From Escherichia phage EcNP1: 64,000 bases of DNA. Location: sequence record NC_054910.1; one strand, 5' to 3'. The translations under genes were made by a program, and so were the position numbers. Of the stretch, positions 24,145 through 34,364 are shown one piece after another (the first letter of the stretch is position 1; the number at the start of each line of letters is the position of its first letter). The notes beneath the pieces are model-generated. The model saw only the letters and a program-made list of their open reading frames with translations, did no database searches and was not told where the DNA came from.

Positions 24145-27100
24145 ATGGCCGAGATTAAAAGAAAGTTCAGAGCAGAAGACGGTCTGGACGCAGGTGGCGA
24201 TAAAATAATCAACGTAGCTTTAGCTGATCGTACCGTAGGAACTGACGGTGTTAACGTTGATTACTTAATTCAAGAAAACACAGTTCAACAATATGATCCA
24301 ACTCGTGGATATTTAAAAGATTTTGTAATCATTTATAATAATCGTTTTTGGGCAGCAACGGATAATATTCCAAAACCTGCTGGAAGTTTTAATAGAATTC
24401 GTTGGAAAGCATTACGTACTGATGCCGTATATACAACCGTATCATCTGGACCATATCAATTAAAATCCGGAGAAGCAATTTCAGTAGATACATCAGTTGG
24501 TAATGACATTGAGTTTAATTTACCACCTTCTCCGCTTGATGGAGAAACCGTAATAATTCAAGATATTGGTGGAAAACCTGGTATAAATCAGGTTAAAATA
24601 AATTCTTCAAATCAGAGTATTGTTAATTTTAGAGGTGAACAAGTACGTTCAGTTCTAATGACTCATCCAAAGTCACAGATGATATTCATTTTTAATAATC
24701 GTTTGTGGCAAATGTATGTTGCTGATTATAGCAGAGAAGCTGCGATTGTTACTCCATCGACTGCATATCAAGCACAATCTAATGATTTTATCGTGCGTAG
24801 ATTTACTTCCGCTGCGCCGATTAATATTAAACTTCCGAGATTTGCTAATCATGGCGATATTATTAATTTCGTTGATTTAGATAAATTAAATCCACTTTAT
24901 CATACAATTGTCACGACATATGATGAAACAACTTCAGTACAAGAAGTTGGAACTCATTCTATTGAAGGCCGTACATCAATTGACGGTTTCTTGATGTTTG
25001 ATGATAATGAAAAATTATGGAGATTGTTTGACGGGGATAGTAAAGCACGTTTACGCATTATAACAACTAATTCTAATATTCGTCCAAATGAAGAAGTTAT
25101 GGTATTTGGTGCGAATAACGGAACAGCCCAAACAATTGAACTTCAACTTCCAACCGATATTTCCATTGGTGATACTGTTAAAATTTCCATGAATTACATG
25201 AGAAAAGGACAAACAGTTAAAATCAAAGCTGCCGGTGAAGATAAAATTGCTTCTTCAGTTCAATTGCTGCAATTCCCAAAACGTTCAGAATATCCGCCTG
25301 AAGCTGAATGGGTGACTGTCCAAGAATTAGTTTTCAATGGTGAAACTAATTATGTTCCGGTTTTACAACTTGCTTATATAGAAGATTCTGACGGAAAATA
25401 CTGGGTTGTACAACAAAACGTTCCAACGGTTGAAAGAGTCGATTCTTTAAATAATTCTACTAGAGCAAGATTAGGCGTAATTGCTTTAGCTACACAAGCT
25501 CAAGCTAACGTCGATTTAGAAAATTCTCCACAAAAAGAATTAGCAATTACACCAGAAACATTAGCTAACCGTACTGCTACAGAAACTCGTAGAGGTATCG
25601 CAAGAATAGCAACTACTGCTCAAGTGAATCAGAACACCACATTCTCTTTTGCTGATGATATTATCGTCACTCCTAAAAAGCTGAATGAAAGAACTGCTAC
25701 AGAAACTCGTAGAGGTGTTGCTGAAATTGCTACACAGCAAGAAACTAATGCAGGTACTGATGATACTACAATCATCACTCCTAAAAAGCTTCAAGCTCGT
25801 CAAGGTTCTGAATCATTATCTGGTATTGTAACCTTTGTATCTACTGCAGGAGCTACTCCAGCTTCTAGTCGTGAATTAAATGGTACAAATGTTTATAATA
25901 AAAACACTAATAATTTAGTTGTTTCGCCTAAAGCTTTGGATCAGTATAAAGCTACTCCAACGCAACAAGGTGCAGTAATTTTAGCAGTTGAAAGTGAAGT
26001 AATTGCTGGACAAAGCCAAGAAGGATGGGCAAATGCGGTTGTAACGCCAGAAACGTTACATAAAAAGACATCAACTGATGGAAGAATTGGTTTAATCGAA
26101 ATTGCTACGCAAAGTGAAGTTAATACAGGAACTGATTATACTCGTGCAGTCACTCCTAAAACTTTAAATGACCGTAAAGCAACTGAAAGTTTAAGTGGTA
26201 TAGCTGAAATTGCTACGCAAGTTGAATTCGACGCAGGCGTCGACGATACTCGTATCTCTACACCATTAAAAATTAAAACTAGATTTGATAGTACTGATCG
26301 TACTTCTGTTGTTGCTCTATCTGGATTAGTTGAATCAGGAACTCTCTGGGACCATTATACCCTTAATATTCTTGAAGCAAATGAGACACAACGTGGTACA
26401 CTTCGTGTAGCTACACAAGTTGAAGCTGCTGCAGGAACATTGGATAATGTTCTAATAACTCCTAAAAAGCTTTTAGGTACTAAATCTACCGAATCGCAGG
26501 AAGGTGTTATTAAAGTTGCAACTCGGTCTGAAACTGTAGCTGGAACGTCAGCAAATACTGCTGTATCTCCAAAAAATTTAAAATGGATTGTGCAGAGTGA
26601 ACCTACTTGGGCAGCTACTACTGCGATAAGAGGTTTTGTTAAAACCTCATCTGGTTCAATTACGTTCGTTGGTAATGATACAGCGGGTTCTACGCAGGAC
26701 TTAGAACTATATGAGAAAAATAACTATGCAGTATCACCATATGAATTAAACCGCGTATTAGCAAATTATTTGCCGTTAAAAGCAAAAGCTGTAGATAGTA
26801 ATTTATTAGATGGTTTAGATTCACTCCAGTTCATTCGTAGGGATATTGCGCAGACGGTTAATGGTTCACTAACCTTAACGCAACAAACGAATCTGAGTGC
26901 CCCTCTTGTATCATCTAGTACTGCTACGTTTGGTGGATCAGTTTCGGCAAATAGTACATTAACTATTTCTAATACTGGAACGGCAACTCGTCTGATTTTT
27001 GAGAAAGGACCTCAAACTGGGACGAACCCAGCTCAAACGATGACAGTCAGAGTGTGGGGAAATCAATTCAGCGGTGAATCGGACACAACACGTTCTACTG

Positions 27101-28014
27101 TATTTGAAGTTAGTGATGAAACGTCTAGTCACTTTTATTCTCAGCGTAATAAAGCTGGTAATATAACATTTAATATCAATGGTACAGTAACACCGATAAA
27201 TGTGAATGCTTCAGGCACATTGAATGTGAATGGCGTAGCAACATTCGGCAGTTCGGTTACTGCTAATGGCGAATTTATCAGTAAATCATCGAATGCTTTT
27301 AGAGCAATAAACGGTGATTATGGATTCTTTATTCGTAATGATGGTGCTAACACCTATTTTATGCTTACTGCATCGGGTGATCAGACCGGTGGATTTAATG
27401 GATTACGTCCTTTAACTATTAATAATGCATCTGGTCAAGTAACGATTGGTGAAAGCTTAATCATTGCCAAAGGTGCTACTATAAGTTCAGGTGGTTTAAC
27501 TGTTAACTCGAGAATTCGTTCTCAGGGTACTAAAACCTCTGATTTATATACCCGTGCGCCAACATCTGATACTGTAGGATTCTGGTCAATCGATATTAAT
27601 GATTCAGCCACTTATAACCAGTTCCCGGGTTATTTTAAAATGGTTGAAAAAACTAATGAAGTGACTGGACTTCCATACTTAGAACGTGGCGAAGAAGTTA
27701 AATCTCCTGGTACATTGACTCAGTTTGGTAACACACTTGATTCGCTTTACCAAGATTGGATTACTTATCCAACTACCCCAGAAGCACGTACCACTCGCTG
27801 GACACGTACATGGCAGAAAACCAAAAACTCTTGGTCAAGTTTTGTTCAGGTATTTGACGGAGGTAACCCTCCTCAACCTTCAGATATAGGAGCGATCCCA
27901 TCTGATAATGGAATAATAGGTAATCTTACTATTCGCGATTTCTTGCGAATTGGTAATGTTCGCATTATTCCTGACCCAGTGAATAAAACTGTTAAATTTG
28001 AGTGGATTGAATAA
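24145..28014 (+). CDS. 34: long tail fibre proximal subunit gp34
   Basis: 1289 aa (T4 gp34 length), MAEIKRKFRAEDGLDAGGDKIINVALADRTVGTDG; TATAAATA late promoter upstream. Confidence 0.95.
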   Translation: MAEIKRKFRAEDGLDAGGDKIINVALADRTVGTDGVNVDYLIQENTVQQYDPTRGYLKDFVIIYNNRFWAATDNIPKPAGSFNRIRWKALRTDAVYTTVSSGPYQLKSGEAISVDTSVGNDIEFNLPPSPLDGETVIIQDIGGKPGINQVKINSSNQSIVNFRGEQVRSVLMTHPKSQMIFIFNNRLWQMYVADYSREAAIVTPSTAYQAQSNDFIVRRFTSAAPINIKLPRFANHGDIINFVDLDKLNPLYHTIVTTYDETTSVQEVGTHSIEGRTSIDGFLMFDDNEKLWRLFDGDSKARLRIITTNSNIRPNEEVMVFGANNGTAQTIELQLPTDISIGDTVKISMNYMRKGQTVKIKAAGEDKIASSVQLLQFPKRSEYPPEAEWVTVQELVFNGETNYVPVLQLAYIEDSDGKYWVVQQNVPTVERVDSLNNSTRARLGVIALATQAQANVDLENSPQKELAITPETLANRTATETRRGIARIATTAQVNQNTTFSFADDIIVTPKKLNERTATETRRGVAEIATQQETNAGTDDTTIITPKKLQARQGSESLSGIVTFVSTAGATPASSRELNGTNVYNKNTNNLVVSPKALDQYKATPTQQGAVILAVESEVIAGQSQEGWANAVVTPETLHKKTSTDGRIGLIEIATQSEVNTGTDYTRAVTPKTLNDRKATESLSGIAEIATQVEFDAGVDDTRISTPLKIKTRFDSTDRTSVVALSGLVESGTLWDHYTLNILEANETQRGTLRVATQVEAAAGTLDNVLITPKKLLGTKSTESQEGVIKVATRSETVAGTSANTAVSPKNLKWIVQSEPTWAATTAIRGFVKTSSGSITFVGNDTAGSTQDLELYEKNNYAVSPYELNRVLANYLPLKAKAVDSNLLDGLDSLQFIRRDIAQTVNGSLTLTQQTNLSAPLVSSSTATFGGSVSANSTLTISNTGTATRLIFEKGPQTGTNPAQTMTVRVWGNQFSGESDTTRSTVFEVSDETSSHFYSQRNKAGNITFNINGTVTPINVNASGTLNVNGVATFGSSVTANGEFISKSSNAFRAINGDYGFFIRNDGANTYFMLTASGDQTGGFNGLRPLTINNASGQVTIGESLIIAKGATISSGGLTVNSRIRSQGTKTSDLYTRAPTSDTVGFWSIDINDSATYNQFPGYFKMVEKTNEVTGLPYLERGEEVKSPGTLTQFGNTLDSLYQDWITYPTTPEARTTRWTRTWQKTKNSWSSFVQVFDGGNPPQPSDIGAIPSDNGIIGNLTIRDFLRIGNVRIIPDPVNKTVKFEWIE

Positions 28015-28022
28015 GAGGTATT

Positions 28023-29138
28023 ATGGAAAAATTTATGGCAGAGTTTGGACAAGGATATGTCCAAACGCCATTTTTATCGGAAAGTAATTCAGTAAGATAC
28101 AAAATAAGCATAGCGGGTTCTTGCCCGCTTTCTACAGCAGGACCATATGTTAAATTTCAGGATAACCCTGTCGGAAATCAAACATTTAGTGCAGGTCTTC
28201 ATTTAAGAGTTTTTGACCCTTCAACAGGAGCATTAGTTGATAGTAAGTCATATGCTTTTTCTACTTCAAATAATACTACATCAGCTGCTTTTGTTAGTTT
28301 CATGAATTCTTTGTCAAACAATAGACTTGTTGCTATATTAACTAGCGGAAAGGTTAATTTTCCTCCTGAAGTGGTATCTTGGTTAAGGGGAGCAGGAACT
28401 TCAGTTTTTCCATCAGATTCAGTATTGTCAAGATTTGACGTATCATATGCTGCTTTTTATACTTCTTCTAAAAGAGCTATTGCATTAGAGCATGTTAAAC
28501 TAAGTAATAGAAAAAGCACAGATGATTATCAAACTATTTTAGATGTTGTATTTGATAGTTTAGAAGACGTCGGAGCTACGGGATTTCCTAAAAGAACATA
28601 TGAAAGTGTCGAGCAATTTATGTCAGCGGTTGGTGGAACTAATAACGAAATTGCGCGATTGCCAACTTCAGCTGCTATAAGTAAACTTTCTGACTATAAT
28701 TTAATTCCTGGTGATGTTCTTTATCTTAAAGCACAGTTATATGCTGATGCTGATTTACTTGATCTTGGAACTACAAACATATCCATTCGTTTTTATGATG
28801 CATCAAATGGTTATATTTCCTCTACCCAAGCTGAATTTACTGGGCAAGCTGGGTCTTGGGAATTAAAGGAAGATTATGTAGTTGTTCCTGAAAATGCAGT
28901 CGGATTTACTATATATGCGCAGAGAACTGCTCAAGCTGGTCAAGGAGGAATGAGGAATTTAAGCTTTTCTGAAGTATCAAGAAATGGCGGCATTTCAAAA
29001 CCTGCCGAATTTGGCGTCAACGGTATTCGCGTTAATTATGTCTGTGAATCGGCTTCACCTCCAGATATAATGGTACTTCCTACACAAGCCTCTTCTAAAA
29101 CTGGCAAAGTGTTTGGGCAAGAATTTAGAGAAGTTTAA
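28023..29138 (+). CDS. 35: long tail fibre hinge protein gp35
   Basis: 371 aa, position and size match gp35. Confidence 0.9.
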   Translation: MEKFMAEFGQGYVQTPFLSESNSVRYKISIAGSCPLSTAGPYVKFQDNPVGNQTFSAGLHLRVFDPSTGALVDSKSYAFSTSNNTTSAAFVSFMNSLSNNRLVAILTSGKVNFPPEVVSWLRGAGTSVFPSDSVLSRFDVSYAAFYTSSKRAIALEHVKLSNRKSTDDYQTILDVVFDSLEDVGATGFPKRTYESVEQFMSAVGGTNNEIARLPTSAAISKLSDYNLIPGDVLYLKAQLYADADLLDLGTTNISIRFYDASNGYISSTQAEFTGQAGSWELKEDYVVVPENAVGFTIYAQRTAQAGQGGMRNLSFSEVSRNGGISKPAEFGVNGIRVNYVCESASPPDIMVLPTQASSKTGKVFGQEFREV

Positions 29139-29859: not shown

Positions 29860-32844
29860 ATGGCTACTTTAAAACAAATACAATTTAAAAGAAGCAAAAC
29901 TGCAGGTCAACTTCCTGCCGCTTCAGTATTAGCCGAAGGTGAATTGGCTATTAATTTAAAAGATAAAACAATTTTCACAAAAGATGACTCAGGCAATGTT
30001 ATAGAATTAGGTTTAAAATATGGAGGAACAATTGATGGTTCTTTAACTGTTAATGGAAATATAATTGGAAATTTAACAGGTAACGCTGCAACTGCAACCA
30101 AATTAAAAACAGCACGAAAAATTAATGGTATATCCTTTGATGGGTCAAAAGATATCACGCTAACTCCATCCGACATAAATGTCAATAGCACAACGTTTAT
30201 AAAAAATAACGGCGAATTACCTGTTGATGCTAATTTAGATACGTATGGGCCTGTTGAAGAATATCTTGGAGTTTGGTCGAAAGCAACTTCAACCAACGCT
30301 CAACCAGCAAATAAATTTCCAGAAGACAATGCTGTAGGTGTGCTAGAAGTATTTGTGGCCGGTCAATTTGCTGGTACTCAGAGATATACAACTAGATACG
30401 GAAATGTTTATATTCGTTCCTTGACTGCTACATGGAACGGAGTAAATGGTCCGTGGAGTGTGTGGCGAAATATTCAATCTGGTACTCGTCCACTGTCAAC
30501 AACAATTGATCTTAATGATCTAGGAGGCGCTGAACACTTTGGTTTGTGGCGAAATAGTTCAAATTCCATTGCTACATTTGACAGAAATTTCCCAGAAGAG
30601 GGGTCGTCAGCTCAAGGTCTTTTGGAAGTATATGAAGGTGGAAACTATTCTCGTACACAAAGATATACAACCAGATTTGGTGTTGTTTATACTCGTTGTC
30701 TTGCTGCCGCGTGGGATTCTACTGCGCCTAAATGGGGACCGTGGCAACAAGTCGGTAATGTCACACCAGCGACTTTTTATGATGGAGATCTGAATGATTT
30801 TAAAACTCCTGGGTTATATAATATTTTAGGCACTGATGCCGTTATTAATTGTCCTACAGGCGAAGGTTTACCAGCCGTTATTGTTGGTTTGCTGGAAGTT
30901 AAACAGCGTGCTTCTGGTGGTGCTATTTTCCAAAAATTTACTACTGCCGGAACAGGTGCAACTACCCGCGATCGTATTTTTGAGCGCGCATATACCGGCG
31001 GTGTGTGGGGTGAATGGAACGAAGTATACACATCTTATTCTCTACCAATTACTTTGGGTATGGGCGGTATTAAATCTAACTTAGCAGAGTTAGACTGGCA
31101 AACATTTGATTTTGTTCCTGGTAGTATGTTTAGCGTTCCTTTGAACAAAATAAAGAACATGCCAGCTAATATGGATTGGGGTACGATTGACGGAAACTTA
31201 ATTATGTTTTCTGTTGGTCCTAGCGAGCACACCAGCACAGGACGTACTGTTCAGGTTTGGCGTGGTACTGTATCCCAGACAAACTACCGTTATTTTGTCG
31301 TTCGTGTATTCGGTAATTCAGGAAATAGAACTTGCACAGTTCGTCGCGTTGTTCTTGAAGATGGTCGCCACAAATGGACAGCGCAACAAGATTTTAATGG
31401 CGCAGTTAACTTCGGTGCTCCTACCAATTTTAACTCTACTGTTAACCTTAATAACACTACCACTTTTAAAACAGAAGTTAAATTTCGCTCATTGAATGCA
31501 TTCCGTATGTATGGCGGAAAATTTGGTACAATTTTCCGTAATGATGGAGAGAGTCTTTATATTCTTTCCACCGACGAAGATGACCAAGATGGAAACTTTA
31601 ATACAAATAGACCTTTCCGTTATGAATTGAGAACTGGCGATGTTACTTTAGGCGGTACTAGTGGTGCTAACGTTTTAAAATTAAAACGTGATTCTCTCAC
31701 CGCATTTTTTGGCGGTGATATTAACATGAAAGGCGTGCTGACTTTTGACGCCGGACGTTTAGGATCACGAGATTATTTTAAATTTAACCATTGGGGTGAT
31801 AGTAATAATGCGCGTGATAACATTATTCAGTTAGAAGACAGCAAAGGCGCTCATTTTTCCACTGAACGTACTTTAGCGACTGGTGCAATTAAGACTAAAT
31901 TTTTTGGTGAAATTGAATCCGATGGTAAATTGGTTATTAAACGTCCGGGTGATTCTATTGTATTATCAACAACTGCTAGTAATTCTTTGCATATTCGTGG
32001 TGACATAGACGGGACTGGTAACTGGTATATTGGTAAGGGTGGTGCTGATAATGGATTAGCGTTATATAGTTATGCTACTAATGCTGGTGTATACATTACA
32101 AACGCAGGAGATATCACGCTAAGTCCAAAAGGCGTCGAAATGGCTCATGTTAATAACGTTCGATTATATGTTCATGGTGAACGTTGGACTGCTAGTCAAC
32201 CAGGTGATTGGGGTAGTCAGTGGCAAGTGGAAGCGCCAATATTCGTCGATCATGGTTATGTTTCACAGGATTGTTATTATCCAATTATTAAAGGAAGAAG
32301 TGTAATCACCAATCAAGGGTTTGTAACTGCCGTCGATCTTGGTATTCGTCGTGTCAATAACAATTGGGGACAAGCAATTATTCGTGTTGGATCTGCGGAG
32401 GCATCGCCAGCGGCTGGACACCCTAACGCGGTATTTGAATTTCATTACGACGGTACTTTCTATTCTCCTGGTAATGGTAACTTTAACGATGTGTATATTC
32501 GTTCCGATGGTCGACTTAAGATCAATAAAGAAGAGTTAGAAAACGGAGCACTTGAAAAAGTTTGCCGACTGAAAGTTTATATTTACGATAAAGTTAAGTC
32601 TATTAAAGACCGTAGTGTTATTAAACGTGAAGTTGGTATTATTGCTCAGGACCTTGAAAAGGAATTACCGGAAGCTGTATCTAAAGTTGAAGTTGATGGA
32701 TCTGATGTTCTGACAATTTCTAACTCTGCTGTGAATGCTCTTTTAATTAAGGCTATTCAGGAAATGAGTGAAGAAATTAAAGAATTGAAAACGCCTTTCT
32801 TCACTAAAATTGCTCGCAAAATTAGTAATTATTTTAAATTCTAA
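29860..32844 (+). CDS. 37: long tail fibre distal subunit gp37 with C-terminal chaperone-like domain
   Basis: 994 aa; N-terminus [39 protein letters not shown] as gp36/gp37 family; C-terminal ~113 aa with SDGRLK motif. Confidence 0.92.
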
Positions 32845-32848
32845 CAAC

Positions 32849-32866
32849 AAGGGGCTTTGCCCCTTT
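32849..32866 (+). other. short GC hairpin between genes 37 and 38
   Basis: AGGGGC-UUU-GCCCCU followed by UUUGGAG and the gp38 ATG; weak terminator or RNA stability element. Confidence 0.4.
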
Positions 32867-32876
32867 GGAGAAAATT

Positions 32877-33677
32877 ATGGCAGTAGTTGGTGTTCCCGGC
32901 TGGATTGGAAGTTCATCCGTAAATGAAACAGGACAACGATGGATGAGTCAAGCGGCTGGTCAATTAAGATTGGGTGTTCCTTGCTGGATGAGCCAATTCG
33001 CCGGACGCTCAAGAGAGATTATTCATACCGTAACAGCAAACCATAACTTTAATGGTCAATGGTTCCGTGATAGGTGCTTTGAAGCTGGCGGTGCACCCAT
33101 TGTATTCAATATTGTTGGTGATATCGTTTCTTATTCTAAAGATGTGCCACTTTTCTTTATGTATGGGGATACGCCTAATGAATATGTTGTTCTTAATATT
33201 CATGGTGGTGTTCATATGTGGGGTCGTGGTGGTAATGGTGGATACACTCACTCAGGAGGCGACGGTAACGGTACACAAGGCGGTCATGTTATTCAAAATG
33301 ATATCGGTGGACGGCTTCGTATTTGGAACTACGGTGTTATAGCTGCTGGGGGTGGCGGCGGCGGTGGTATTGCATATCGTCCACACTCAGGGGCAAACTG
33401 GCAAGATATCGGTGGCGGCGGCGGTCGACCTTTCGGTGGTGCTGGCGGTGGCGGTTATTCCGGTGGTGCTGCTTCGTATGAAGGTCCGGGTGGTGGTTAT
33501 GACTATGGTAACGCACACTCCGGCGCAGGTGGTAATGCTGGTGCTGCTGGTCAGAATGCATGGTCTGACGGCGGTAAAGTTCTTAAAGTTGGTGTTGGTG
33601 GTGCGTCTGGTCATGCAGTGTTTGGGTCTTCTCCAACTTGGGGTGCTGTTGGAACAATTTACGGACCAAGAGTATAA
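32877..33677 (+). CDS. 38: T2-type receptor-binding adhesin gp38 (glycine-rich motifs)
   Basis: Track ORF starts at TTG; ATG at 32877 with GGAG RBS gives [13 protein letters not shown]; conserved N-domain then Gly-rich motifs ([28 protein letters not shown]) as in T2/T6 gp38. Confidence 0.9.
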
Positions 33678-33707: not shown

Positions 33708-34364
33708 ATGGCAGCACCTAGAATATCATTTTCGCCCTCTGATATTCTGTTGGGTGTTCTAGATCGCTTGTTCAAAGATAATGCTACCGGGAAAGTTCTT
33801 GCTTCCCGGGTAGCTGTCGTAATTCTTTTGTTTATAATGGCGATTGTTTGGTATAGGGGAGATAGTTTCTTTGAGTACTATAAGCAATCAAAGTATGAAA
33901 CATACAGCGAAATTATTGAAAAGGAAAGAAATGCACGCTTTGAATCTGTCGCCCTGGAACAACTCCAGATAGTTCATATATCATCTGAGGCAGACTTTAG
34001 TGCGGTGTATTCTTTCCGCCCTAAAAACTTAAACTATTTTGTTGATATTATAGCATATGAAGGAAAATTACCTTCAACAATAAGTGAAAAATCACTTGGA
34101 GGATATCCTGTTGATAAAACTATGGATGAATATGCAGTTCATTTAAATGGACGTCATTATTATTCCGACTCAAAATTTGCTTTTTTACCAACTAAAAAGC
34201 CTACTCCCGAAATAAATTACATGTACAGTTGTCCATATTTCAATTTGGATAATATCTATGCTGGAACAATAACCATGTACTGGTATAGAAATGATCATAT
34301 AAGTAATGACCGCCTTGAATCAATATGTTCTCAGGCGGCCAGAATATTAGGAAGGGCTAAATAA
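33708..34364 (+). CDS. t: holin T
   Basis: 218 aa, MAAPRISFSPSDILLGVLDRLFKDNATGKVLASRVAVVILLFIMAIVWYRGDSF; T4 holin length and single TM. Confidence 0.95.
   Translation: MAAPRISFSPSDILLGVLDRLFKDNATGKVLASRVAVVILLFIMAIVWYRGDSFFEYYKQSKYETYSEIIEKERNARFESVALEQLQIVHISSEADFSAVYSFRPKNLNYFVDIIAYEGKLPSTISEKSLGGYPVDKTMDEYAVHLNGRHYYSDSKFAFLPTKKPTPEINYMYSCPYFNLDNIYAGTITMYWYRNDHISNDRLESICSQAARILGRAK

Follow-up and report, generated by a model that had tools for sequence, protein, structure and literature searches.

A predicted self-cleaving chaperone domain of the Peptidase_S74 type at the C-terminus of gp37 in a T2/S16-type Tequatrovirus tail-fibre locus

Self-cleaving chaperone domains in related fibres and spikes

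Dunne et al. 2018 reportedly described a C-terminal intramolecular chaperone in gp37, the distal tail-fibre subunit of phage S16 (PDB 6F45). PMC7917993 states that S16 gp37 autocleaves, exposing the surface on which gp38 docks, and quotes the scissile bond as S^S (here and below, ^ marks the bond). The same paper presents the N-terminal tryptophans of S16 gp38 as prongs that enter pockets in the distal tip of gp37, pockets that are exposed only once the domain leaves. PMC7289586 groups S16 gp37 with proteins of K1F, phi29 and T5, in which a C-terminal intramolecular chaperone is removed by autoproteolysis. Gp37 of the Yersinia T4-like fPS phages has been aligned with the S16 protein, with cleavage predicted at DVYIR^SDGRLKI and the DVYIR end proposed to form the gp38 docking surface (PMC7917993). 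In phage T2, the experimental record of C-terminal processing of gp37 before capping by gp38 is credited to Drexler, Riede and Henning 1986 in PMC3157838 and PMC13030884, and the former gives the same order, C-terminal cleavage and then a gp38 cap, for T2/T6-type gp37.

The K1F endosialidase CIMCD (3GW6) and the chaperone of pb1, the T5 L-shaped fibre (4UW8), are the founding members of the Peptidase_S74 family. In T5 the scissile bond is Thr1263-Ser1264 and the S1264A substitution blocks cleavage, an effect seen in E. coli without any other phage protein (PMC4690869). The T5 domain grips the mature domain with tentacles, long beta-hairpins formed by residues 1332-1371, and in both T5 and K1F an Arg from the neighbouring chain, upstream of the cut, was proposed to sense folding (PMC4690869). 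In myelin regulatory factor (MyRF), which carries the related ICA domain (7DC3), the scissile bond was placed at P586-S587 by mass spectrometry; S587A and K592A abolish self-cleavage, and mutating R590, Y615, I637 or Q639 perturbs it (PMC8326128).

The distal fibre locus and the C-terminal domain of gp37

We analysed a 64,000-nucleotide stretch of Escherichia phage EcNP1 (NC_054910.1), hereafter the window, which is Tequatrovirus DNA and carries a distal fibre locus of the T2/T6/S16 type, comprising gp34, gp35, gp36, gp37, the gp38 adhesin and holin t (Table 1). The gp37-gp38 DNA is 99.9% identical to that of Escherichia phage vB_EcoM_Nami, where the counterpart of gp37 (99.9% identity) is annotated 'tail fibers protein', and 90-96% identical to many further Tequatrovirus records. 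A gp37-gp38 module 94.9% identical to the window locus also occurs in a record named 'Pseudomonas phage PsgM02F' (OR584013.1, 132048-135849), whose host label, Pseudomonas coronafaciens pv. garcae, is unexpected for a Tequatrovirus-like fibre and adhesin. Within gp37 itself, Pfam gave a significant match at aa 521-587 (window 31420-31620, E 9.9e-12) to Gp34_trimer, the domain by which gp34, the proximal fibre subunit, trimerises at its C-terminus; its occurrence midway along the distal subunit may be read as a sign of module sharing among fibre subunits.

Table 1. Features of the tail-fibre locus, in window coordinates.
Feature	Position	Strand	Basis or details
gp34	24145-28014
gp35	28023-29138
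gp36	29201-29851
Gene 37, long tail fibre distal subunit precursor	29860..32844, stop included	+	ORF, 994 aa, 109.0 kDa
Predicted mature gp37, aa 1-881, 96.2 kDa, end ...NFNDVYIR	29860..32502	+	Cleavage-site alignment, PMC7917993
Predicted scissile bond Arg881^Ser882 (CGT TCC)	32500..32505	+	Homology to T5, MyRF and S16 bonds
Predicted C-terminal intramolecular chaperone domain, Peptidase_S74 type, short form without tentacle hairpin	32503..32841	+	aa 882-994, 113 aa, 12.85 kDa
Predicted catalytic motif S882-D-G-R885-L-K887 (Ser nucleophile, Lys general base)	32503..32520	+	Homology alignment
Amphipathic basic tail, 17 residues, aa 978-994	32791..32841	+	Outside family profile (match ends aa 978)
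Gene 38, T2/S16-type glycine-rich adhesin, 266 aa from ATG 32877	32877..33677	+	Pfam Gp38_N, GP38
Holin t	33708-34364

The original prediction held that the last ~113 residues of gp37 form a chaperone of the Peptidase_S74 type, and the Pfam comparison bears this out. Searched against the whole protein, PF13884 (Peptidase_S74, with the Pfam name 'Chaperone of endosialidase') matched aa 882-940 with E 5.4e-11 and 43.0 bits, above its curated gathering cut-off of 22 bits; against the isolated 113-aa piece the E-value was 2.1e-12. Of the 58 profile positions, 1-57 lie on aa 882-940, and position 1 falls on Ser882 (TCC, 32503-32505). From Ser882 to Phe994 there are exactly 113 residues, and the 64-residue peptide cited in the prediction is found in gp37. 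The gp37 stop codon (TAA, 32842-32844) follows directly on the domain.

We also made a profile from 12 homologues that included neither the window protein nor its closest relative. Within the window it retrieved a single ORF, gp37 at aa 868-978 (E 4.8e-32; runner-up E 0.62); no second copy of the domain turned up, whether on the short tail fibre, which has one in Aeromonas phage avDM3, or elsewhere. The S-D-x-R-x-K signature claimed for the region is present as SDGRLK at aa 882-887; a six-frame scan of the window, covering 268 stop-to-stop ORFs of 60 aa or more (33,583 aa in all), gave no other SD.R.K. Using the last 146 residues as a tblastn query, we found relatives in 1,561 phage records, including T-even gp37, T5-like lateral fibres, Stx-phage fibres, streptococcal PblB and a Streptomyces phage minor tail protein. 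The domain stood at the extreme C-terminus of the fibre or spike gene in every homologue with an annotated gene end (9 fetched loci plus T2, S16, K1F and T5); in the fetched loci it ended at the stop of the fibre gene or within a few codons of it, and in those from T2-type phages the gp38 adhesin gene came next after gp37. Single-sequence AlphaFold2 modelled the last 146 residues as helical over the domain, at low confidence (mean pLDDT 51, pTM 0.43).

At the sequence level, solved structures gave matches as well. The window domain, used as a single sequence, matched S16 gp37 (6F45_A) with E 3.7e-4. We then searched the PDB with a second profile, composed of T-even-type gp37 tails and one Stx2-phage fibre tail, from which S16, K1F and T5 were dropped because a profile including them would be circular for those entries. 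Four solved chains were retrieved: S16 gp37 (6F45, E 8.4e-27), the mouse MyRF ICA domain (7DC3, E 2.3e-11), the fibre 8JOV (E 2.5e-11) and the GA-1 neck appendage chaperone, a CIMCD (3GUD, E 1.4e-4). K1F 3GW6 and T5 4UW8 were not retrieved at E <0.01 in this PDB search.

To compare the residues of the reaction centre, 14 tails, including those of window gp37, T2 gp37, S16 gp37, K1F endosialidase and T5 pb1, were aligned with MAFFT. The Lys (K887) is invariant (14/14), as is the Gly (G926); the Asp and Arg of the motif are at least 90% conserved, and the Ala, Gln and Pro are nearly invariant. All aligned tails but one, a Cys variant, have the Ser; in Streptomyces phage Salutena a MAFFT gap shifted it, and the motif there, SSRRFK, was read straight from the sequence. 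In the alignment, Ser882 and Lys887 stand opposite the catalytic dyads S911/K916 of endoNF, S1264/K1269 of T5 pb1 and S638/K643 of S16 gp37. In the profile alignment with MyRF, window residues S882, R885, K887, Y909, I928 and Q930 correspond to S587, R590, K592, Y615, I637 and Q639. The core residues G926, I928, A929 and Q930 (the G-x-I-A-Q motif), R885 and Y909 are all present in gp37.

The Cys variant is the C-terminus of a 'short tail fiber protein' of Aeromonas phage avDM3 (OP380595.1, 102912-103880), a gp12-like short fibre encoded just upstream of fibritin, in which Cys replaces the nucleophilic Ser (NDMYVR-C-DARLK) and both the Lys and the remaining core are kept. By alignment, a Cys-Lys pair may take the place of the Ser-Lys dyad here, in a domain of the self-cleaving type.

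We conclude that residues 882-994 of gp37 are, with a probability of about 0.93, a self-cleaving C-terminal intramolecular chaperone domain of the Peptidase_S74/CIMCD family, the cleavage being predicted by homology. Sequence comparison establishes here that the domain belongs to the family, that its catalytic residues and their neighbours are conserved, where the site lies and that a cognate gp38 is encoded.

Among the described systems, S16 gp37 belongs to the same kind of fibre, the T-even-type myovirus distal fibre, and has its domain in the same position. The released length is 112 aa in S16 and would be 113 aa in the window, both domains being of the short form; the S-D-x-R-x-K junction is common to the two (DLNVS^SDRRIKK and DVYIR^SDGRLKI), and in both a polyglycine gp38 adhesin follows gp37. 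However, the domains are only ~27% identical, the P1 residue is Ser in S16 and Arg in the window, and the upstream fibre sequence and the C-terminal tail differ. All 12 residues of the Yersinia fPS cleavage string are identical in window gp37, and a related Yersinia phage record, PYps55T, shows 98.6% identity over the last 146 aa. T2 gp37 has the same ...VYIR^SD.RLK junction as the window, whereas its domain is shorter (99 aa), ~46% identical and without the 17-residue tail.

The more distant K1F and T5 domains share with gp37 the spacing of the Ser-Lys dyad, the G-x-I-A-Q core and, as predicted for gp37, a C-terminal trimerising helix and a cut N-terminal to the Ser, at an identity of 14-15%. 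Beyond the core motif they have an insertion of 40-60 residues that is absent from the gp37 type, and its position suggests that it corresponds to the tentacle hairpins. In K1F and T5 it is the mature tip that binds the receptor; in the window, by contrast, a separate adhesin would be added after the predicted cleavage. The MyRF ICA is, like the window domain, of the short form, and it has the same S, R, K, Y, I and Q at its reaction centre; MyRF is nevertheless a eukaryotic membrane transcription factor, in which cleavage frees a DNA-binding trimer and not an adhesin docking site.

The last 17 residues of gp37, part of the predicted released fragment, are basic and strongly amphipathic (hydrophobic moment 0.64). 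In the alignment the same tail is found in ECML-134 gp37 and an analogue, RPWWKKLLRL, in KVP40, and T2 and RB16 are without it. Most likely the tail simply lengthens the predicted C-terminal helix of the fragment. That the 12.9 kDa fragment might have a second role after cleavage, for example by associating with the membrane or with gp57A, instead of being a folding aid that is thrown away, is a thought prompted by the tail and its amphipathic character, and seems improbable.

Predicted cleavage, gp38 docking and alternative readings

The junctions read DVYIR^SDGRLK in window gp37, NVYIR^SDIRLK in T2 gp37, DLNVS^SDRRIK in S16 gp37, TINT^SDARLK in T5 pb1 (S1264/K1269) and PIVT^SNGERK in K1F endoNF (S911/K916). 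In the window, Arg881 (CGT, 32500-32502) directly precedes Ser882. The cut had been placed before the Ser at about nt 32503, and by homology this is the right call, since the T5, MyRF and S16 bonds all lie N-terminal to the Ser. Cleavage at Arg881^Ser882 would give a mature gp37 of 96.2 kDa and a fragment of 12.85 kDa.

From homology we infer the chaperone role, the autoproteolysis and the order of events, cleavage and then binding of gp38. The chaperone domain, with its C-terminal helices and small alpha/beta body, would put three nascent gp37 chains in register, and the registered domain would nucleate folding of the trimeric fibre from its C-terminal end. Once a correct trimer had formed, Ser882, activated by Lys887, would attack the Arg881-Ser882 bond in each chain, and three 12.9 kDa fragments would be released. 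The new C-terminus, ...NFNDVYIR881, would be a blunt tip on which the Trp-bearing N-terminal domain of gp38 could dock, and the docked gp38 would be the receptor-binding tip of the fibre. Gp37 upstream of the domain is unrelated to the T5 and K1F proteins, and no equivalent of their folding-sensor Arg was identified there. T-even fibres also need the general chaperone gp57A, and the domain may therefore not suffice for folding.

The gp38 encoded next to gp37 matches both Pfam families of this adhesin (Gp38_N, E 3.3e-19; GP38, E 4e-66) and shares 44% identity with S16 gp38, including the three Trp residues near the N-terminus; it is predicted to cap the gp37 tip after release of the chaperone domain. 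The mechanical ORF list started gp38 at TTG 32865. We placed the real start at ATG 32877 (MAVVGVPGW...), preceded by GGAG at 32867-32870, because of the Gp38_N match (aa 5-46 of the TTG ORF) and the alignment with S16 gp38. That T2-type gp37 loses its C-terminus before gp38 binds, as the original prediction stated, agrees with the literature as given in PMC3157838, and the T2 junction is like that of the window.

The 32 nt that separate the gp37 stop from the gp38 start contain a perfect 7-bp GC-rich hairpin (AAGGGGC-TTT-GCCCCTT, 32849-32865; -11 kcal/mol as RNA) that ends just before the gp38 Shine-Dalgarno sequence. We considered it as a terminator and rejected this, as a T-run is lacking and a scan for terminators did not report it; it could affect mRNA stability or translation of gp38. 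Several GenBank records label the gp38 adhesin gene 'tail protein and peptidase'. This label is probably an annotation transfer error, because the peptidase-type domain ends the preceding gene, gp37.

Three other readings of the gp37 C-terminus were weighed. A distinct protease, of phage or host origin, might remove the chaperone-family domain in place of autoproteolysis, a reading that accords with the T2 work, described only as 'proteolytically cleaved' in PMC3157838 and PMC13030884, where no protease is named. The complete Ser-Lys dyad, together with the kept neighbours that matter for MyRF self-cleavage (PMC8326128), argues against it, as do the autocleavage reported for S16 gp37 in PMC7917993 and PMC7289586 and the block of T5 pb1 cleavage by S1264A in E. 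coli with no other phage protein (PMC4690869), and we regard it as very unlikely. Still less likely is that the domain stays in the mature fibre as an uncleaved, permanent trimerisation cap, with gp38 binding elsewhere or to the domain itself. Homology alone is no proof of cleavage, and mutation of the Ser leaves uncleaved forms that are stable (PMC4690869); yet the catalytic residues of gp37 are intact, T2/T6-type gp37 is cleaved according to PMC3157838, and the gp38 tryptophans kept here are those that in S16, as PMC7917993 has it, enter tip pockets exposed only after the domain's exit.

The least probable reading, to which we give hardly any weight, is that the match reflects a chance or low-complexity resemblance arising from a coiled-coil-like C-terminus. 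The C-terminal third of the domain is charge-rich and predicted to be helical, a composition that can inflate scores, but the Pfam match falls on the 59 residues at the N-terminal end, which hold the catalytic motif and are taken to be non-helical, not on the coiled coil. The E-values range from 5e-11 to 5e-32 with low bias, and gp37 has each of the invariant residues of the alignment (S, D, R, K, Y, G, A, Q and P). The Pfam, leave-out profile and PDB profile matches refute such a resemblance.

Use of the prediction in annotation and engineering

The observation made in the original prediction is confirmed, and its interpretation is supported in each part that can be tested in silico. The domain family, its mechanism, its presence in T2/S16-type gp37 and the exact cleavage-site sequence are already in the literature; a cut at the identical DVYIR^SDGRLKI was predicted in PMC7917993. 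Our finding on gp37 adds no new biology; its use lies in annotation and engineering. For virion proteomics, the predicted mature gp37 consists of residues 1-881 and would be expected at ~96 kDa rather than 109 kDa. A construct in which the fibre tip or gp38 is swapped would have to include DVYIR^SDGRLK and the domain that follows it if the fibre is to fold.
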